Positions 8,880 through 18,059 of a stretch of 64,000 nucleotides of DNA are shown here, piece after piece. Within the stretch, counting starts at the first letter, position 1; each line of letters begins with the position of its first letter. The position numbers and the translations under genes are program-made. Origin of the DNA: Ferruginibacter sp. (GTDB taxonomy: Bacteria > Bacteroidota > Bacteroidia > Chitinophagales > Chitinophagaceae); contig JBBJMM010000015.1 of NCBI GenBank assembly GCA_037720515.1, positions 4,621 through 68,620 on the forward strand, read 5' to 3'. Below the pieces are notes generated by a model. The model made no database searches. It saw nothing but the letters and a program-made list of their open reading frames with translations, and was not told the DNA's origin.

Positions 8880-9472
8880 ATGCGATATAAACATTTAATT
8901 TCGTTTCTCTTACTTTTTTGTACTGCTTGCAGAAATACAAAAACCAACAAGTCAATAAGTTTGGTTGATGGGTATGGTTACTATAAACAAAATTCGCCAT
9001 CACTTTCAATACAACTTTTTGGAGACTATAAATATCAGCCACTTAAAAAAAAATACTTTCGGGACATTGACAAAAATTTTATAAAATATTCAACTCTAAA
9101 CTTAAGTTGGAAAAACCAAAATTCCTTTATACAGCTCATACAATTGTTCAACCTTACTATTCAACAATTTGCCTCCAATACCATAAAATTTCGTTAGACA
9201 GTTCTTTTATTAGTTTTATCAAAGAGCAATTAAAAGACAAATTGAATTCATCGTTTAATAATTATACAGAAATAAAACTTGATTCGAAAACTGTCTATAA
9301 AATTTCATATCAAGTAACAAATCCTGTAAATGAAATTGCTACAAGCAACACAAAATATTTTTTAAAAAAGGGAGACTATTTATATAGGCTATTATTTTGG
9401 ACAACAGACAATAATGACAAGGTTATTTCGGAAGAAGCAGAATATATAATTACTTACATTCGGTTTGATTAA
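8880..9472 (+). pseudogene. Hypothetical lipoprotein split by a frameshift
   Basis: Lipobox CTAC in ORF 8880-9197; overlapping -1 frame (open from 9071) gives ORF 9107-9472. Confidence 0.55.
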
Positions 9473-9686
9473 TACTGCATAAAACATAAGAATGCAAAAG
9501 CAGGGCTGGTTATTGTCAAATCATCAAAGTAGAGTATCAGGGCGGTTCAGGCTTCCTCCGATTATCAGCTTTATACATAACTTCAGGGTATTTTCAATTG
9601 GGCATTAGCACCAAACTGGGAACAACGAATTTCCTGACTTCAAAGACTCAAGCATTATATACTACTCAACAACCCAACATCACATT

Positions 9687-10121
9687 ATGAATCTAACTTT
9701 CAAACTTTTTTTTGTTTTAACTATTTCATTTTGCTTTTACAACTGCTCTAATACCCTTACAAAAAGCAAAAAGGCAACCGCAACCGGGCAACCCGAATTT
9801 ATAGACAATGGCAAAGCCATAGACAGTTTACTAAAAGCATATAATTGCGAAAGCGTTGAATATGACAATTGGAAAGATAACGATGCAACTGATTCTTGCC
9901 TGACAGTTTGCTTAATAAACAGCAATAAAGTTCTTGCAGGTGATAACCCTGACGAAAATGGGAACCAATTAGAAGGAATTGCTTTGTCAATAAAAAGATC
10001 TTTAGCAAAGCCGCAAAAATATAATTCCTTCTATATCATTTTTGTTAAAAAAGAAAAAGTGAACGGTGAAGATATTAGAGTTCATTCTGCAGGTATGGAA
10101 ATTAGAAGTTCAGCATTATAA
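9687..10121 (+). CDS. Hypothetical lipoprotein
   Basis: 144 aa, hydrophobic N-terminus ending FYNCS. Confidence 0.7.
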   Translation: MNLTFKLFFVLTISFCFYNCSNTLTKSKKATATGQPEFIDNGKAIDSLLKAYNCESVEYDNWKDNDATDSCLTVCLINSNKVLAGDNPDENGNQLEGIALSIKRSLAKPQKYNSFYIIFVKKEKVNGEDIRVHSAGMEIRSSAL

Positions 10122-10159
10122 ACAGCACATAACCTGCGTCTTTACCCCTCCGCTATTAT

Positions 10160-10340
10160 ACTTCACCGCAAAAACAGGAAGGCACGAAGCTTTGCAATGA
10201 TAGTTTATTAGCCCTTTGCGTTTCAGCGCCGCGGTTAAACAAACCGAAAAGTAGCCGCGTATATATTTATACTAACCTGGTAATAAGTTTTTTTTAAAAA
10301 ATATACGTCTATTAGAAAGGGGCGTATATTAGCATAAATA
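10160..10340. repeat. Copy of the GCGGTTAAA repeat composite
   Basis: CTTCACCGC..AAGGCACGAAG..GCAATGA matches 11024-11060; GCGGTTAAACAAACCGAAA(A/T)GTAGCCGCG matches 7217-7245. Confidence 0.75.
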
Positions 10341-10509
10341 CAGATGTTATAGGCAATTTAATGATACAATTAATTTTTATACTGCTAATTGGGACAATAA
10401 CAAAGATGTGTTTCTTCTTTGCCAAGCGCCAAAACATTGTAATTGTAAACGCAATCACGTATCGATAAAATGAAACTTGAAAAATTTATCAATAAATAAC
10501 TAATAAAAT

Positions 10510-10932
10510 ATGGCTACAAATATCTCAACAATTTGGCTTGATGCAACAAAAGGTAAAGTGTGGGACACCTTGACAAAACCTGAACTTATAAAACTTTGGC
10601 AATATGGTAGCGACCTTATTACGAATTGGGAAGTTGGTAGCAACATTAAATTTAGAACTGAATGGGAGGGAAAAATATTTGAACAATGGGGACAAGTTTT
10701 AGAAGTTCGACCAGGCGAATTATTGAAGTACAGTTTGTTTGCACCACGACCAGACCTTGAAGACAAACCTGAAAATTATTTCATAATGTCTTATGTATTG
10801 ACGACAGAAAATGGGCAGACTAAACTTGAAATTATACAAGAAGATAACAGATCTAATGCAGTTCAGGAAGAACCACAAGGTGATGAAAATCCAATTTTGC
10901 AATCATTAAAAAAAGTTGCAGAAACTGAGTAA
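10510..10932 (+). CDS. SRPBCC/AHSA1 domain protein
   Basis: KVWDTLTKPELIKLWQYGSDLITNWEVGSNI; typical Aha1-like layout. Confidence 0.9.
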   Translation: MATNISTIWLDATKGKVWDTLTKPELIKLWQYGSDLITNWEVGSNIKFRTEWEGKIFEQWGQVLEVRPGELLKYSLFAPRPDLEDKPENYFIMSYVLTTENGQTKLEIIQEDNRSNAVQEEPQGDENPILQSLKKVAETE

Positions 10933-10990
10933 CGAACAACCAAGAATAGGTGATAATTAGCTGACTGATGAAAAAAAATCGACTATAAAC

Positions 10991-11302
10991 AAACCTTAGC
11001 GTCTCCGCGCCTTCGCGGTTAAACTTCACCGCTACAAGAAGGCACGAAGTTTCGCAATGAAATAATCATAATTAAACCTCTGCGTCTCTCCACCTCCGCG
11101 GTTAAACTTTCAATGCAAAATCTTAGCGAAACCTTTGCGTCTTTCCACCTTCGCGGTTAAACTTCACCGCTAAGATAAGAAGGCACGAAACTTCGCAATG
11201 AAATAATCATAATTAAACCTCTGCGTCTCTCCACCTCCGCGGTTAAACTTTCATTGCAAAATCTTAGCGAAACCTTTGCGTACATACGCCTACGCGGTTA
11301 AA
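10991..11302. repeat. Tandem array of five 33-bp AAACC-N3-GCG...CGCGGTTAAA motifs (about 141-bp higher-order unit)
   Basis: Copies at 10991, 11074, 11129, 11215, 11270; the spacers also recur with 141-bp period. Confidence 0.85.
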
Positions 11303-11529
11303 TCCATTAAGCAGTACCCTTAAAAGTAAATCACACCTAATTGTTAAAAATTAAATCCGCCGGCAAAATATATCCGTATTTTTTCAGCATGCTGTCCACA
11401 TCCAAAGATTAACCACCTCAATTCAACCCCGAATTCACTTGTTAGTATTACCTGTATTTAAAACAGGTACTACGTTTCATAATTGGTACAACCACCTGGA
11501 AAATTTAGTCATCATTAAATAAAAAATTT

Positions 11530-13626
11530 ATGAAAAAAAAAATCTATGCATCCATCATGCTGTTAGCCATGATACTAAACACGTTCCCGGTCTGGGCTTC
11601 CAGCCACAGGGAAGCTCCATTGATTGCAGATGATCCAACTGCTGATAATACCGACGTGTATGCTTTTAAAAGTCCAAACGATCCCAATAAAATCGTATTA
11701 ATCGCAAACTACATCCCTTTTCAATTACCCCAGGGCGGACCTAACTTTTATCATTTCAGTGAAAATGTACGCTATGAGATCCATGTTGATAATAACATTG
11801 CTACTAAAGGTGATGATATTGTTTACCGGTTCACATTTGAAAGGGTGAATGAAGATCCAACTACATTCTTCAACATCCGTTTAGGAAAAGAGAATTTAAA
11901 AACTACTTATGACCTTGAAAGAAGTATGGACGGTGGAAAAAAATTCAATACAATTTTAAATAATGCCCCCGTACCTCCACCCAATATAGGACCACGCTCT
12001 ATCAGTTCGCCTGTAGGATTAAATGCTCCGAGTTATGAATCTTTAATGACAGGTGCAATTCGAACTGCCAGCACCGGCGAAAAAGTTTTTGCAGGGCCCG
12101 TTGATGATCCGTTCTTTGTTGACCTGGGTGGAGTATTTGACCTGGGTGATGCACCCCGCCAGGGACCTACACGCCCTGAAGATGGTTTAAAATGTATAAA
12201 TGTTTCAACCATTGCAATCGAGGTTGACATCAGCACTTTACAAAAAGATCGTAAACCATTAAGCCAGGCAGCAAATATCCTTGATCCCAATTATGTGATT
12301 GGTGTATGGGCTTCTGCCAGCCGCCAGAAGATCACGGTCTTAAATGAAGTTTCTGATATGAAAGACAACAAGGATGATAAAGAATTAGAAAAGCATTCCG
12401 GCCCGTGGGTACAAGTATCAAGGTTAGGTATGCCATTAACGAATGAAGTTATCAATCCAATTGGAGATAAGGATCTATGGAACAGGCTTACACCTTACCA
12501 GGATCTTTCCAGGATAGCCCAGTTCGGAAATTATTTTTACAATCCTGAGCTGGCATTGTATATGGATGAAGCTAAATTCGGACCGGCAATACCTGCATTT
12601 GCAGCATTGCGTATACAAAAAAATTCGCTCCAGATGTATGGATTTGGAAATGGCCAGAACGGTTTATTTCCTTTAAAAGGAACTCCTGCATTAAATGGAA
12701 CTGCACTGAGTGAAGCAAATTTTGGTGGTTTGTTATTACCCGGACCCGGCAAACCAAGGTCCGTAGATCTTTATCCAATTTTTAATACAGGCGTACCTAA
12801 CCTTCGCCCCTACCAGCTTGCTGTGATGAAACAGGGCGGTAATCCTTTAGCAGAAGGAAAGCCTTTCGTCAATAATTTTCTTCCTAACGGCGGAGATATG
12901 TTGAGATTGAATATGGCAGTTCCGGTAACGCAGAGGAATGATCCTGCATTTAGTTCTGAAGGTTTGGTTAGAGCTGCAGTGTTGGGTTTAACAGTAGCAC
13001 CTTATAATACAAATAAAAATCTTCAGTTCATTCCGAATATGGATGGCTTCCCGAATGGCAGAAGACTGGAAGATGATGTAACCCGTATTGAACTACAGGC
13101 AGTGAGCGGAATTGTATTAGCAGCTATCGGTTTCTGGTATGATGATTATATTGCTGGTAGCCCTAACCCGGTTACGCCTGATTTGTTAGATGTATTAAAT
13201 TATACAACTAAAGTAGAAGCAAATGATACATCATTCAGAACATCTTTTCCTTTTGAACAAACCCCATGGGCAGGCACGCATAATTGTGATTGCGATCCTC
13301 CACCATTGGCCAATCGTCAAAATATAAATAACATCAGCAACAGCACAAATACTATATTGGGTTCGCCCGAACTGGTAATGAAAACATCTCCTAATCCATT
13401 CAATGATAACACTACCATTGATTACCAGTTGAAATCAACAGCTAACATTAGTGTGGTTGTATATGATGTGAAAGGGAATGAAATGCAGGTGTTGGTAAAT
13501 AAAAAACAAACCCCGGGAACGTACACCAGGCAATTTAATTCGCAAGGCCTTGTTTCTGGAATTTACTTTGTAAAGATTTACCAGGATGGTGTGGTGAAGC
13601 AAACACTTAAAATAGTTAAAAGATAA
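11530..13626 (+). CDS. DUF4331 family protein with T9SS type A C-terminal sorting domain
   Basis: Signal peptide then ASSHREAPLIADDPTADNTDVYAF, GPVDDPFFVDL, QVSRLGMPLTNE, GFPNGRRLEDDV; C-terminal SPNPF...SGIYFVKI...KIVKR. Confidence 0.9.
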   Translation: MKKKIYASIMLLAMILNTFPVWASSHREAPLIADDPTADNTDVYAFKSPNDPNKIVLIANYIPFQLPQGGPNFYHFSENVRYEIHVDNNIATKGDDIVYRFTFERVNEDPTTFFNIRLGKENLKTTYDLERSMDGGKKFNTILNNAPVPPPNIGPRSISSPVGLNAPSYESLMTGAIRTASTGEKVFAGPVDDPFFVDLGGVFDLGDAPRQGPTRPEDGLKCINVSTIAIEVDISTLQKDRKPLSQAANILDPNYVIGVWASASRQKITVLNEVSDMKDNKDDKELEKHSGPWVQVSRLGMPLTNEVINPIGDKDLWNRLTPYQDLSRIAQFGNYFYNPELALYMDEAKFGPAIPAFAALRIQKNSLQMYGFGNGQNGLFPLKGTPALNGTALSEANFGGLLLPGPGKPRSVDLYPIFNTGVPNLRPYQLAVMKQGGNPLAEGKPFVNNFLPNGGDMLRLNMAVPVTQRNDPAFSSEGLVRAAVLGLTVAPYNTNKNLQFIPNMDGFPNGRRLEDDVTRIELQAVSGIVLAAIGFWYDDYIAGSPNPVTPDLLDVLNYTTKVEANDTSFRTSFPFEQTPWAGTHNCDCDPPPLANRQNINNISNSTNTILGSPELVMKTSPNPFNDNTTIDYQLKSTANISVVVYDVKGNEMQVLVNKKQTPGTYTRQFNSQGLVSGIYFVKIYQDGVVKQTLKIVKR

Positions 13627-13631
13627 ATTAC

Positions 13632-13678
13632 AAAAGGGGTTGTATTGATAATCATGCAATCAATACAATCCCTTTTTT
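13632..13678 (+). terminator. Intra-operon 18-bp stem-loop (terminator or mRNA stabiliser)
   Basis: AAAAGGGGTTGTATTGAT-9 nt-ATCAATACAATCCCTTTT followed by TT. Confidence 0.7.
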
Positions 13679-13699
13679 AACTTTTTTTAAAACAGTAAC

Positions 13700-15043
13700 A
13701 TGAAAAAAAATATACTATACCTATTACTAATAATTTTCTTTGTTGGGGCCGTAAGCTTTGTGGTAGTAAAATATAAACACAAAAAAGAAAGCGAAAGTAA
13801 AATTGAATATTTCTTACTTCCCCGCGCTGGAAACAACAGCAAAGAAGAATGGGCATTTGCAAAAAAATATACTGACAGCCTGATCACACGGATTGCCGCA
13901 AAGCCTGGTGACAGCAAATCAAAAATTGCACTGGTTAATGCATATATAATAGAATCACGCATAAGTGGCAACATGGCTTATTATGATAGAGCCGCAATGA
14001 AAACGGTGGAAAGTATTTTAGCTAAAGAGCCGGAACATGCTGACGCCCTGATGTTGAAATCCTTAGTGCAATTATCACAACATCATTTTGCTGAGGGATT
14101 AACAACTGCAACAACGGTTGTAAATTTAAAACCCAATAATGCATTTGGATATGGGTTGCTTGTTGATGCGAATATAGAAATGGGTAATTATAAGGCGGCA
14201 CTGGAGGCTGCTGAAAAAATGATAAGCATACGTCCGGATATGCGTTCCTATTCACGTATTTCTTATTTGCGTGAAATACATGGAGATTATCCCGGTGCAA
14301 TTAGTGCAATGAAGCTTGCTGTTGCAGCAGGAGTGCCGGCAGAAGAACCAACCGAATGGAGCAGAACACAGTTGGGGCGTTTGTATGAGCAGTTAGGCAG
14401 AGTGTCAGAGGCACGTTACCAATACCAGTTATCATTGGCTGCCCGTCCGGATTACAGCAATGCCTTGGCAGGGTTAGGGAGATTAGCAGCGCATGAAAAA
14501 AAATATGACAGCACTGTTTATTATTTTCAGCAGGCGTCGGGCTTTACCAACGATCTTGATGTAAGGCAAAACCTGGCAACTGCATTACAAAATGCAGGGC
14601 AATCTCAAAAAGCAATTGAATTAAGAAAAGATATCATCAACGATATGAATAAAAATGTAAATAATGCTGATGACCCTGAACTCGGCCATTATTCAGATAA
14701 AGAATTAGCGATAGTTTACCTGGAAAATAACAATACTGATAAAGCCCTGCAACATGCAATGGCAGAATATAACCGTCGGCCGCAAAACATAGAAGTTAAT
14801 GAAACCATGGCCCTGGTGTATTATAAAAGGAATGAGGCAGCAAAAGCACTTCCTTATCTTAAAACCGCATTATCAACCAACAGCAAAAAACCAGCTTTAT
14901 TAACCATTGCCGCATTAATTTATTTAAAGTCGGGCAATGCGGAAACTGCTAAACAGTTATTGAGCGAAATTTCCTACCACCCGGTAATGCCGCAACAAAT
15001 GCTGGCTGATGCTAATGAGGCTTATAAAATTGCTCAGCGGTGA
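13700..15043 (+). CDS. Tetratricopeptide repeat protein with N-terminal membrane anchor
   Basis: N-terminal TM segment, multiple TPR-like helical pairs (e.g. FGYGLLVDANIEMGNYKAALEAAEKMISIRP). Confidence 0.88.
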   Translation: MKKNILYLLLIIFFVGAVSFVVVKYKHKKESESKIEYFLLPRAGNNSKEEWAFAKKYTDSLITRIAAKPGDSKSKIALVNAYIIESRISGNMAYYDRAAMKTVESILAKEPEHADALMLKSLVQLSQHHFAEGLTTATTVVNLKPNNAFGYGLLVDANIEMGNYKAALEAAEKMISIRPDMRSYSRISYLREIHGDYPGAISAMKLAVAAGVPAEEPTEWSRTQLGRLYEQLGRVSEARYQYQLSLAARPDYSNALAGLGRLAAHEKKYDSTVYYFQQASGFTNDLDVRQNLATALQNAGQSQKAIELRKDIINDMNKNVNNADDPELGHYSDKELAIVYLENNNTDKALQHAMAEYNRRPQNIEVNETMALVYYKRNEAAKALPYLKTALSTNSKKPALLTIAALIYLKSGNAETAKQLLSEISYHPVMPQQMLADANEAYKIAQR

Positions 15044-15699
15044 AATTGAAGGTGCAAATTTTATGTTTGTTGTTGTTATGTTTTTATCAGCCTTTATTTG
15101 CCCATACAATAAATTACGCACTTGAGCATGCACCCACGGGACATGTATTTTGGTATTATTTTAAATTGGGACTGCAGCATATTGTTCCTTACGGGCTTGA
15201 CCATATTCTTTTTGTGATAGGCTTATGCCTTTTAAACAACAAAATAAAAACAATGCTTTGGCAAGCAACTGCTTTTACTGTAGCCCATTCTTTAACCCTG
15301 GCTTTATCAATGAAAAATATTGTCGTAGCCCCACCCGCAATAGTAGAACCTATCATAGCACTCTCCATATTTTTCATCGCCATTGAAAATTTGTTCACCA
15401 AAGAGTTAAAACCGTGGAGAATAGGTCTGGTATTCGCTTTCGGGCTCATACATGGTTTGGGTTTTGCGAGTGCTTTAAATGAGATCGGCCTGCCCAGGGA
15501 TAATTTCCTTACCTCTATACTTGCCTTTAATGTGGGTGTAGAAGCCGGTCAGATTTTAATAATAGCTGCTGTTTTTGCGATACTCATTTATCCCTTAGGC
15601 AAACAACCCTGGTTTAAAAAACGAATTGTTTATCCTGTTTCCATACTCATTGCATTAATGGCTTTGTATTGGAGTGTGAAAAGAATTGCGTCTATATGA
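15040..15699 (+). CDS. HupE/UreJ family membrane protein
   Basis: GLQHI..GLDHILF, TAFTVAHSLTL, FGLIHGLGFA, FNVGVEAGQ; 4-bp GTGA overlap with the TPR gene. Confidence 0.9.
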   Translation: MKLKVQILCLLLLCFYQPLFAHTINYALEHAPTGHVFWYYFKLGLQHIVPYGLDHILFVIGLCLLNNKIKTMLWQATAFTVAHSLTLALSMKNIVVAPPAIVEPIIALSIFFIAIENLFTKELKPWRIGLVFAFGLIHGLGFASALNEIGLPRDNFLTSILAFNVGVEAGQILIIAAVFAILIYPLGKQPWFKKRIVYPVSILIALMALYWSVKRIASI

Positions 15700-15869
15700 T
15701 GCTGGTGGTTATACTTTACCGGTAAGAAAGGAAGGCGGTAAGTTTCGTAAGGAAAATAAATTTAGTGAAATATTTGCACGGTTATACTTACTGATTAAGT
15801 TTCTCTTGATTAATTTAAGAAATAGATTTTTTATAAGATGGGTCAATTTTAATTTTCAGATTATTTTTA

Positions 15870-16328
15870 GTGATGCCGGAAAATAAATTTATCGTTAGAG
15901 AATCCGTTTTTTTTAATCTTCTTTTAGGTCTTATTTGCCTTTCAATATTTATTGGTGTTATTTTCACAATAAAAGGGCAGCAAAGATTTACAACATTAGA
16001 TTATATAAAATTTGTCGCATTGCTGTTTATACCCAGCATTATTGTCTTTAGAAAAGCAACAAGGAGAAGTCTGGTATTTCAAATTGACAAAAACGGCATT
16101 TACTACATTGGCGTTCTAATTACGAATTGGGATAGATTTATACAAGCATATGTTCTCGAGGACAATCCCGAAAAAGGTTTAGACATTAGGTTTTCGCTTT
16201 ATGTAGAGTATTATGATCTTGAAACAAATGTTCCATTTAAAATTAAAATTCCATTATCCGGAACTTTGGACAAGTCAACCGAGCAAATTGAATTTGCAAT
16301 AAAAGAATACAGTCTGACTTCAAGATAA
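15870..16328 (+). CDS. Hypothetical membrane protein (2 TM segments plus soluble domain)
   Basis: 152 aa ORF with two hydrophobic helices. Confidence 0.65.
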   Translation: MMPENKFIVRESVFFNLLLGLICLSIFIGVIFTIKGQQRFTTLDYIKFVALLFIPSIIVFRKATRRSLVFQIDKNGIYYIGVLITNWDRFIQAYVLEDNPEKGLDIRFSLYVEYYDLETNVPFKIKIPLSGTLDKSTEQIEFAIKEYSLTSR

Positions 16329-16388
16329 AATGCTATGTATATTGCACACAGTAGGTTAAAGGGTAAGTGATGTTTTTTTATTTGACAT

Positions 16389-17113
16389 ATGTTTATGAGT
16401 ATAATAAAGAGTTTTTTTTCCTCTAGATTCAAAAGTAACATTAAAGAGAGGTTAGGTGTTCCTTCATTACATTGGAGTTTGCAAAACTTAAAAAAGGCGG
16501 GCTTAACACCTAATTTTGCTATAGATGGCGGAGCCTATATAGGTGAATGGACGAAGGATTTCTTAGAAGTGTTTCCCGATTCTAAAGTATTGATGATCGA
16601 GGCCCAATCGGCCAAAGAACCAACATTAAAAAGTGTATGTGAAAAGTTTTCAAATGTTCACTATCACATGGCATTGATGGCAGCAAAAGACAATCAAGAG
16701 CTTTCGTTTGTAGAGAATGAAACGATAAGTTATACCAGTTTTAACCCCTTGATTCAAACAAAGGAAAAGAAACTTTCTACAACCTTAGATTCTATTATTG
16801 AAATGAATAATTACCAATATCCTGATTTTATTAAATTAGATGTTCAAGGTTATGAGATTGAAGTTTTGAGAAGGGTGCATCTAAGTGTTTAGAAATATCG
16901 GAGATATGCTTGCTTGAAGTTTCCATTTTCGATTGGGGAGATAGATTTGTGCCACTTATCCCCGAAACATTAAACTTTATGAATGAACATAACTTTATGG
17001 CTTATGATATTTCACATATTTCAAGGAGACCGTATGACCATGCATTAAATCAAATAGATATGTTTTTTGTCAAAAAGAATTCAAAATTAATTGCTTTAAA
17101 AGAGTGGTCGTAG
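16389..17113 (+). pseudogene. FkbM family methyltransferase, frameshifted
   Basis: IDGGAYIGEW and FIKLDVQGYEIEVL; the shifted frame after about 16870 reads KGASKCLEISEICLLEVS...QIDMFF. Confidence 0.8.
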
Positions 17114-17190
17114 ATTCTTCCTATTACCTAAGCTAAGGGGTTGAATTCTTTACGATTCTTTCAATCTTTCATGATCAAAACTGAAGTATA

Positions 17191-17579
17191 TTGAAATTGC
17201 GAGATAATTCGATAATCTCGCAATTATCAAAGAATTGTGAACCAGAAGAATTGTGGAAAGCAATTAAATTTCAGCGCTATTTAAAGAGTAATACTTTTCG
17301 TTTCAGCAAATATAATTTTCATTATATAATCACGGATTATCTTCAACGTATTTTTCATCGCTTGATCTTCACATTGGTGGTAAGTTGAGCAGCAATATTG
17401 GAATTGCTGAAACTGATAAAACCAAATTCATTATAAGTTCTATTATAGAAGAAGCAATTTCCAGTAGTCAAATGGAAGGAGCTAATACTACTCGAAAAAA
17501 AGCGAAAGAGATGATTCAAAATTTTATTAAATCCAAAGTGTTTAATAAAGTTTTGGCTAAATATAAAATCATAGTTTAA
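17191..17579 (+). pseudogene. Fic family protein N-terminal remnant
   Basis: DLHIGGKL and IEEAISSSQMEGANTTRKKAKEM in shifted frames; truncated well before any Fic HPFxxGNGR motif. Confidence 0.7.
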
Positions 17580-17675
17580 GGTACCGATTGCCAACATAAG
17601 TTTTTGCAAAAATAGAACTGGACAATATTCTAATTTCAGCTTTTGTTTTCAACCTCAATTTTATAATTTAAATTA

Positions 17676-18059
17676 CTATTGTCCGGTTAAAATGCTGTTC
17701 CTCGGCCTCATAAAAAATCCGTTAAGAAAATTGAAGCGGAAGGCGTTAGAAGAAATACAGATGTTACTACAGTTGAGTTATATTTATAGTCGGTAAGTAG
17801 CACCTGGCTTGGCTTTTATATGAAGATGGAACTTGTTTTTTTTTAGCCTGCAACTTAGATTTTTAGGATTTTTTATGCAGCCTTGATTTTTGCTCCACTT
17901 TTAGCTTATTCTGTTATTTAAATTTATCGCTGAATCTCCTGCGTCGATTTGTATCAAGAAAAAGTGGAATGAAATAAAACCTATCCTAAAACAAATTTCT
18001 TTTTAAAGGGCTCTGGTATTGTATTTTAAAGAAAGAATATAATTTCTACCGGACAGTAG
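17676..18059 (-). mobile_element. MITE-like non-autonomous element, copy 1
   Basis: Imperfect TIRs CTATTGTCCGGTTAAAAT / ATTTCTACCGGACAGTAG flanked by TA; reverse-complement homolog of 37519-37858; no internal ORF recognised. Confidence 0.75.

Follow-up and report, generated by a model that had tools for sequence, protein, structure and literature searches.

The DUF4331-TPR-permease locus

The window analysed here is a 64,000-nucleotide stretch of contig JBBJMM010000015.1 from Ferruginibacter sp. (Bacteroidota, Chitinophagaceae), whose plus strand carries three consecutive genes at positions 11530-15699 that encode a DUF4331 protein, a tetratricopeptide repeat (TPR) protein and a HupE/UreJ-2 permease. 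Gene-neighbourhood comparisons indicate that these three genes are one copy of a module occurring in at least five bacterial lineages. On balance, and with modest confidence, they are read as an extracytoplasmic module that acquires a transition metal of the copper/nickel class; in this reading we infer that metal is bound, which metal it is, which way it is transported and that the TPR protein makes contact. Neither DUF4331, PF14224 nor the module, including HupE in connection with copper, Zur or TonB, is mentioned anywhere in the literature searched, although the family is large (2,709 matches at E <= 1e-10 in a search of cluster representatives).

The DUF4331 gene (11530-13626, plus strand) encodes 698 amino acids and matches PF14224 over residues 24-579 (E 8e-130; 434 bits, cut-off 27); the match spans model positions 1-421 and hence the full length of the profile. 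The TPR gene (13700-15043, plus strand; 447 amino acids) specifies one N-terminal hydrophobic anchor at residues ~5-24 followed by TPR repeats, and the permease gene (15040-15699, plus strand; 219 amino acids) matches PF13795, HupE_UreJ_2 (E 9e-48; 162 bits against a cut-off of 24.5). The GTG start codon of the permease overlaps the TPR stop codon by 4 bp in the sequence GTGA (15040-15043). The initial annotation, made from the sequence alone, had listed these three same-strand open reading frames (ORFs), and all were recovered, as were the membrane anchor of the TPR protein and the 4-bp overlap; its description of the permease as His-rich did not hold, the overall histidine content being unremarkable.

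Architecture of the DUF4331 protein

The protein begins with a Sec signal peptide (residues 1-23, ending V-W-A; 11530..11598, plus strand), and the sequence and family alignment predict a mature N-terminus S-S-H-R-E-A-P (11599..11619), an X-X-His arrangement of the amino-terminal Cu(II)- and Ni(II)-binding (ATCUN) type. The body, residues 24-579 (11599..13266), is delimited by Pfam and an AlphaFold2 (AF2) model and contains conserved DDPFF, PNGRRLEDDV and FPF...P motifs. Directly after it, the alignment places a T-H-N-C-D-C-D tail at residues 582-588 (13273..13293), and the chain ends in a type A C-terminal sorting domain (CTD) of the type IX secretion system (T9SS) at residues 616-698 (13375..13623), recognised over residues 621-698 by PF18962 (39.7 bits, cut-off 27) and TIGR04183 (41.5 bits, cut-off 23). 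Both profiles bear out the CTD proposed in the initial annotation, and the motifs it named are all present: SSHREAP at 24-30, DDPFF at 193-197, GRRLEDD at 510-516 and THNCDCD at 582-588.

Identity to the closest relatives listed is 68-86%, falling to 35-45% between phyla; the nearest homologs point to a Ferruginibacter-like organism within the Chitinophagaceae. About 30 residues of the family are invariant, mostly Asp, Asn or Arg, and H26 is the sole invariant histidine. In 16 aligned close relatives the CxC of the tail is invariant and its His mostly retained; the tail is a possible second metal site. The T-H-N-C-D-C form, found in the Chitinophagaceae clade, comes after the conserved FP(Y/F)...P end, where several further lineages have a His-rich tail instead, such as PHxGFxHxH, and some have none.

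The full-length model has a mean predicted local distance difference test (pLDDT) score of 83, with high values in the CTD and a disordered linker before it (residues 588-612). The mature-chain AF2 model of the body reaches a pLDDT of 92.4 and a predicted template modelling (pTM) score of 0.93, and folds into a beta-sandwich half followed by a helical half. Because pLDDT averages 78 over the ten residues that open the mature chain in this model, the S-H-R-E-A-P segment is probably packed on the body rather than forming a free tail. Foldseek comparison of two DUF4331 models with the PDB gave no fold neighbour (best TMq 0.13), and the matches returned, all with TMq <= 0.13, were rejected as noise or as fragments of Ig-like or CTD type. 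No solved relative of DUF4331, nor of the window permease, emerged when the PDB was searched by sequence and by profile.

Variant architectures were observed elsewhere. In other Bacteroidota families (L059 9714-10966 and L066 9909-11149), two neighbouring genes consistently encode DUF4331 in split form: its N-terminal half is predicted to mature to A-D-H-I-D-A-P and its C-terminal half is a lipoprotein ending exactly in FPYLAAPF, with TPR or HupE genes next. A 1526-amino-acid protein (L035 9422-14002) combines DUF4331 with four CHRD domains and a T9SS CTD. One metagenomic representative (P0177) carries a C-terminal cupredoxin domain of the plastocyanin/azurin type (PF00127, 26.4 bits against a cut-off of 21.2) with the C-x2-H-x4-M copper-site pattern.

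Conservation of the module across phyla

Two sets of loci were compared in addition to the window. The Bacteroidota survey covered 401 genomes, 55 of them DUF4331-positive, with 20-kb regions around the matches; the second set comprised 80 named loci, mostly from Bacteroidota with a few labelled Calditrichaceae, Rubricoccaceae/Rubrivirga, Kapaibacterium and Rhodanobacter; cultured carriers include isolates of Dyadobacter, Spirosoma, Runella, Hymenobacter and Pontibacter. Loci of other lineages were found by exact-protein look-up. Co-occurrence of the three families elsewhere, a question raised by the initial annotation, was found across phyla: the window's TPR family directly adjoins DUF4331 in 25/26 full-length Bacteroidota loci, a TPR gene lies beside DUF4331 in 58 of the ~66 second-set loci having enough flank, and one accompanies it in 9/10 informative loci of other lineages. 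Taken together, the adjacency holds in about 88% of more than 90 loci from Bacteroidota. Five loci from Chloroflexota-type or unassigned bacteria share the order DUF4331-[sortase]-TPR-NicO, Eisenbacteria have DUF4331-TPR with a TonB receptor nearby, and the DUF4331-TPR neighbourhood also occurs in Myxococcota; in Polyangiaceae the TPR gene is one gene away in 2/3 loci.

HupE_UreJ_2 comes next in 9/26 loci of the first set and 23/80 of the second. At the level of genomes, it is found in 33/55 DUF4331-positive compared with 73/346 negative genomes (odds ratio 5.6, p = 2e-8, uncorrected for phylogeny). Judged by these gene neighbourhoods, the co-occurrence of DUF4331, TPR and permease is far above chance, across phyla.

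The TPR proteins of all lineages, represented by that of the window and those of five others, align colinearly over ~445 residues and share the invariant positions H128, F130, D156, G162, Y164, P179 and R186, and therefore constitute one dedicated family rather than generic TPR noise. The TPR domain is placed outside the cytoplasm because the partners from outside Bacteroidota are lipoproteins or secreted proteins. In the Eisenbacteria locus (L152), the secreted TPR partner (8931-10286) has the predicted mature start H-D-L-H-V-E-P-R-H-D-H, that is, His1 and a His-rich stretch, and a beta-carbonic anhydrase gene comes next after it.

The Ferruginibacter genome (3.16 Mb, 98% complete) additionally encodes a second TPR-HupE_UreJ_2 pair on another contig (G000:C39:57741-59772; L069 9741-11772, minus strand). 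This pair is paralogous to that of the window (phmmer E about 1e-107 to 1e-109) and is accompanied neither by DUF4331 nor by the promoter motif described below; its permease likewise begins with His after the signal peptide.

The anchoring domain of DUF4331 varies with lineage and may be a T9SS CTD, a surface-layer homology (SLH) domain or a sortase signal; the Myxococcota proteins and the CTD-less paralogs have no anchor and are predicted to be soluble in the periplasm. Many loci carry two DUF4331 copies, and in the tandem loci scanned (3/3) the first copy, of 574-579 amino acids, lacks the CTD, whereas the second, of 686-690 amino acids, possesses a T9SS CTD. By these features, the CTD-less copy should stay in the periplasm and the CTD copy reach the surface, and such pairs would fit a surface-to-periplasm relay. 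The Ferruginibacter genome encodes the surface-type copy only.

Predicted metal sites at the mature N-termini

The motif (S/A)-S-H-x-E-A-P was found in 428 of the 470 DUF4331 sequences that start with Met, the other 42 being apparently mostly fragments. It reads S-S-H in 424 and A-S-H in 4, and in 428/428 of these sequences a signal-peptidase site obeying the -3/-1 rule lies directly before it, with alanine at -1 in 96% and a small residue at -3. S25, H26, E28, A29 and P30 are invariant. In the window protein the cleavage site reads V-W-A|S-S-H-R-E-A-P, and even the divergent split subfamily keeps X-X-His, as A-D-H. Since the signal-peptidase site directly precedes S-S-H, mature DUF4331 is predicted to start with X-X-His. 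The ATCUN arrangement (NH2-X-X-His) binds Cu(II) and Ni(II), and its sequence pattern, a free N-terminus with His at position 3 and no proline at position 2, is predicted for all sampled DUF4331 proteins.

The permease has a comparable feature. Its signal peptide ends in L-F-A, which makes His22 (codon 15103-15105) the first predicted mature residue, ~20 residues ahead of the first transmembrane helix. All 13 sequences of an alignment share His22, as do at least 90% of 33 orthologs; the invariant residues of the permease are H22, H47, D54, H55, H83, H138 and E168.

Two permease families in the same position

The five permease partners from outside Bacteroidota all score above the NicO cut-off, with the RcnA Ni/Co subfamily as their nearest match. 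Their poly-His loops are long and cytoplasmic, and each has a predicted His1 outer domain that starts H-P-L-G-N-F-T and has no match in the PDB, 9GCE included, or in Pfam. Comparison of the HupE_UreJ_2 alignment with that of the NicO-type partners by hhalign gave a probability of 0.5%, that is, no similarity, and homology between the two is not claimed on that account. The window permease does not match the NicO/RcnA family PF03824 and has a weak match to PF04955 (E 5e-9). The same slot is held by two Ni/Co-annotated permease families without detectable similarity, which ties the module to metal.

Promoter motif and TonB receptor partner

A promoter motif of the extracytoplasmic function (ECF) sigma type, AAATCC-N16-CGTA, lies at 11353..11378 on the plus strand, ~150 nt upstream of the DUF4331 start codon. 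AAATCC-N15-17-CGTA precedes 24/69 DUF4331 operons, against 2.2 expected and a maximum of 7 in shuffled sequences. Genes for ECF sigma and anti-sigma factors flank 12/80 loci; the Ferruginibacter genome contains no sigma gene with the motif upstream and no clear ortholog of the sigma/anti-sigma pair from other loci. Downstream of the motif, the predicted 5' leader contains a perfect 6-bp inverted repeat, ACCTGT-N7-ACAGGT (11450..11468, plus strand), a palindrome that could be an operator or a leader hairpin.

A TonB-dependent receptor of ~755 amino acids (CarboxypepD_reg, plug and barrel) is encoded in 31/80 loci, as a rule directly behind TPR or HupE. A His-rich membrane protein of ~140 amino acids, c6, is encoded immediately before the receptor or one gene away in 8 loci. 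The receptor matches no curated substrate subfamily. No TonB-dependent receptor gene lies beside the trio in the window, and an orthologous c6-receptor pair is found on contig C28 of the same genome, where the AAATCC-N-CGTA motif recurs 63 nt upstream of the c6-receptor operon (C28:25111); most of the other 24 genome-wide matches to the motif are not in a comparable promoter position. Because the two operons share this motif, they probably belong to one regulon. Convergent with the c6-receptor operon is a copper/heavy-metal island (G000:C28:14165-25111) that encodes two CPxxCxM heavy-metal-binding repeat (HMBD) proteins, a CusA-like resistance-nodulation-division (RND) pump, a Cys-rich four-helix protein and a CPH-type P1B ATPase; its efflux genes lack the motif.

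The strongest sequence clues are the X-X-His predicted for DUF4331, the His1 predicted for the permease, the promoter of ECF type and the partner TonB receptor at another locus of the genome; none of them featured in the initial annotation.

A hairpin between the DUF4331 and TPR genes

An intrinsic-terminator-like hairpin at 13632..13676 (plus strand), predicted by folding and followed by a T-rich tract up to 13689, separates the DUF4331 and TPR genes. Its arms, 13632-13649 and 13659-13676, form a perfect 18-bp stem with a 9-nt loop, and its folding energy is -23.3 kcal/mol (z = -5.5; 0/200 shuffles fold as well), which bears out the 18-bp hairpin noted initially. A simple terminator scanner overlooked it, probably since the loop exceeds the 8-nt limit of that program. 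Among relatives, terminator-like hairpins occur at 18/41 DUF4331-to-TPR junctions of at least 40 nt, against ~1 in shuffled sequences, and recur without sequence conservation; the spacers between TPR and HupE have a median of ~5 nt. This recurrence supports the earlier suggestion that the hairpin yields an excess of the secreted subunit, and the junction hairpins would fit a step-down in expression after it. An Rfam scan of 9000-18000 at E <= 1 found no riboswitch or other RNA element; a miRNA family matched the hairpin, the sole Rfam match, and was dismissed as a chance match.

Comparison with known metal-acquisition systems

The closest published parallel is offered by the anglerases, in which His1 domains fused to HupE/UreJ-2 have been found by experiment to bind Cu2+ with a Kd of 62-74 nM and Ni2+ with a Kd of 220 nM (Franco Cairo et al., Nat Commun 2025, PMC12537917). 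These domains are proposed to "fish" metal for the permease (PMC12537917; PDB 9GCE); DUF4331 goes unmentioned in that paper (PMC12537917). The anglerase permeases, in which Ang-1 or Ang-2 domains are fused to HupE/UreJ-2, belong to the same PF13795 family and present an extracytoplasmic His1 after the signal peptide, as is predicted for the window permease. They differ in possessing a beta-sandwich of ~170 residues between His1 and the membrane domain, where the window permease has ~20 residues only. Because this domain is missing from its 219 amino acids, the window permease is not an anglerase fusion, and by analogy its His1 hook may work like that of the anglerases. A further difference is that the capture protein of the window, DUF4331, is encoded by a separate gene, presents X-X-His rather than His1 and comes with a dedicated TPR partner.

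HupE/UreJ nickel permeases belong to hydrogenase and urease clusters (PMC12537917, PMC4284471). Like the window permease, they are small secondary permeases with conserved His and Asp in the membrane helices, but the window permease belongs to a separate family, PF13795, and the classical nickel clients are missing here because neither urease nor NiFe hydrogenase is encoded.

The proposed DUF4331 site resembles the ATCUN motif in having His at predicted position 3 and a residue other than proline at position 2. Well-known ATCUN proteins include serum albumin, histatin 5 and hepcidin. DUF4331 differs from a simple motif of this kind in that residues 4-7 (R-E-A-P) are also invariant and the segment is modelled as ordered, and the site may therefore be more elaborate than a free ATCUN tail.

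In the Isd haem acquisition system of Gram-positive bacteria, sortase-anchored surface receptors feed a membrane transporter, and a dedicated sortase is encoded in the operon. The DUF4331 module is similar in that a single operon provides a capture protein anchored at the surface, an anchoring device that differs by lineage and a transporter in the membrane, and DUF4331 operons from outside Bacteroidota encode a sortase of their own. The folds are unrelated, however; the proposed ligand is a metal ion instead of haem, the transporter is a secondary permease instead of an ATP-binding cassette (ABC) system, and the window uses a T9SS domain instead of a sortase.

Periplasmic copper enzymes such as NosZ are served by the TonB-dependent copper receptors OprC/NosA and by the periplasmic carriers CopC, PCuAC and YcnI. 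These systems likewise combine an outer-membrane TonB receptor with extracytoplasmic carriers that bind metal at their N-termini. Unlike OprC/NosA, the DUF4331-linked receptor falls into no curated subfamily, and neither DUF4331 nor its TPR partner is related in sequence or fold to CopC, PCuAC or YcnI.

Identity of the metal

Urease and hydrogenase genes are absent from the window, as the initial annotation had noted, and the whole genome is likewise without them: neither urease alpha nor NiFe hydrogenase was found in it, nor CbiC, which performs a core step in the synthesis of B12. Nickel superoxide dismutase (Ni-SOD) was not found either, though the control for that search was silent. The genome does encode NosZ, a copper-rich periplasmic enzyme. 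A role in nickel or cobalt handling is doubtful here because urease, NiFe hydrogenase and CbiC are absent but NosZ is present.

Copper is, from what the gene content indicates, at least as likely as nickel in this genome. NosZ, the Cu2+ preference of the published His1 domains, the cupredoxin fusion and the CxC of the tail favour it over nickel here. As a sequence-based estimate, copper ranks first at somewhat short of an even chance, nickel follows close behind, and a different metal would be the answer in an appreciable minority of cases. Across the Bacteroidota survey, nosZ occurs in 27/55 DUF4331-positive and 108/346 negative genomes (odds ratio 2.1, p = 0.013, uncorrected for phylogeny), which is a weak association.

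A proposed capture and uptake pathway

In the proposed pathway, DUF4331 would be exported by Sec, and signal peptidase would leave a Ser-Ser-His N-terminus that constitutes an ATCUN-type site for Cu(II) or Ni(II). The T9SS domain would then send the protein to the cell surface to capture metal, which the TonB-dependent receptor and the small His-rich membrane protein, both encoded elsewhere, would carry across the outer membrane. The TPR protein, tethered to the membrane on the periplasmic side, may serve as a docking or hand-over partner, possibly by binding the conserved FP(Y/F)...P motif found at the C-terminus of the DUF4331 body. Import of the metal would fall to the HupE/UreJ-2 permease, which is apparently coupled to the TPR gene in translation and whose predicted His1 would be a short hook. 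Owing to the terminator-like hairpin behind the DUF4331 gene, more of the surface protein would be made than of the membrane components. The initial annotation's proposal, in which a TPR protein and a permease join DUF4331 in handling metal at the surface and the hairpin sets the stoichiometry, appears right in outline; it is too narrow in its focus on nickel and cobalt and does not choose between capture and cofactor loading.

A more far-reaching version of this pathway is possible, although we hold it only tentatively. DUF4331 and TPR would represent a new multi-phylum class of extracytoplasmic metal-capture protein, of unsolved fold and with an X-X-His site, and in Bacteroidota a protein metallophore relay under one ECF sigma regulon would operate, in which copper or nickel would be captured by the copy that T9SS displays, carried over the outer membrane by a dedicated TonB receptor and delivered to the His1-hooked permease by a periplasmic copy or the TPR protein.

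Several observations weigh against capture and uptake. The model gives the N-terminus of DUF4331 a fair degree of order (pLDDT 78), unlike that of a free ATCUN tail, and a family with one invariant His among some 30 invariant residues, mostly Asp, Asn and Arg, looks more like an enzyme or a calcium-stabilised fold. A DUF4331 protein at the surface and a TPR protein tethered to the inner membrane would meet only during the periplasmic transit of the former. The NicO-type partners are nearest to the RcnA efflux subfamily, so that transport might run in either direction, and the TonB receptor fits no known substrate class. In addition, 22/55 DUF4331-positive genomes lack HupE_UreJ_2, and the second TPR-HupE pair, standing without DUF4331, shows that the permease pair needs no DUF4331.

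Alternatives to capture and uptake

Part of this counter-evidence feeds the strongest alternative, namely that DUF4331 acts as a metalloenzyme at the surface or in the periplasm, such as a hydrolase or a copper-dependent oxidoreductase, with the TPR protein and the permease as its maturation factors. The permease would then export cytoplasmic metal, and the TPR protein would keep the enzyme, in unfolded or apo form, until it is loaded ahead of T9SS export, which agrees with the fact that a surface-bound copy can meet the TPR protein in the periplasm only. The size of the body (~555 residues), its high conservation with ~30 invariant polar residues, the N-terminal motif modelled within an ordered body, the cupredoxin fusion of one representative, as in enzymes with an electron donor, and the proximity of the NicO-type partners to RcnA all speak for an enzyme. 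However, the linkage to a TonB receptor and the common promoter motif suggest import, the outward-facing His1 hook of the permease resembles published capture domains, no known catalytic fold or motif was found in PDB sequence, profile and fold searches, and the second TPR-HupE pair occurs without any DUF4331. Enzyme maturation is rated unlikely, and capture and uptake are favoured over it.

It is quite improbable that DUF4331 serves as a structural protein or adhesin of the surface, stabilised by calcium and assembled by a dedicated TPR chaperone, and is linked to the permease only by loose co-regulation in envelope stress regulons. The invariant D35, D39, D42, D193, D198, D204, D515 and D516 do resemble calcium sites, the anchors vary by lineage as in surface-layer proteins and adhesins, the operon is apparently under ECF control and most loci lack HupE. 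A structural role of this kind would leave unaccounted for the two dissimilar Ni/Co-annotated permease families in the same slot, the invariant X-X-His at the predicted mature N-terminus and the His- or Cys-rich tails after the body, and it sits poorly with the anchorless forms of Myxococcota and the CTD-less paralogs, which are predicted to be soluble and periplasmic.

Least probable of all is a role in metal excess, in which DUF4331 would keep toxic metal sequestered on the cell surface and the permease would operate together with the copper efflux island: the c6-receptor operon is directly beside that island and the NicO-type partners resemble RcnA, but TonB-dependent receptors import substrates, the receptor operon and the island are convergent rather than co-transcribed, and the promoter motif is absent from the efflux genes.

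If capture and uptake is the correct reading, the module would constitute a new protein-based route of trace-metal capture at the cell surface and in the periplasm, one that Myxococcota, Chloroflexota-type bacteria and other groups share with the Bacteroidota of soil and water. T9SS cargo and TonB receptors would also be tied to the metal nutrition of the cell, with the supply of copper to nitrous-oxide reductase as one possible client in this organism. The module reading gives the DUF4331 family a testable role.

Other features of the region

Two further features flank the operon. The long gap upstream of the DUF4331 promoter contains, at 10991-11302 of the window, four full copies of a 51-nt direct repeat (AAACCTtTGCGTC...CGCGGTTAAACTT) within two 126-nt units, with a possible degenerate fifth copy after them. 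The repeat core GCGGTTAAA occurs 62 times in the genome, in clusters, and therefore looks like a genome-wide element resembling repetitive extragenic palindromic (REP) sequences. Just 3' of the operon, at 16389-17113, an FkbM-type methyltransferase is apparently broken into ORFs of 167 and 67 amino acids.

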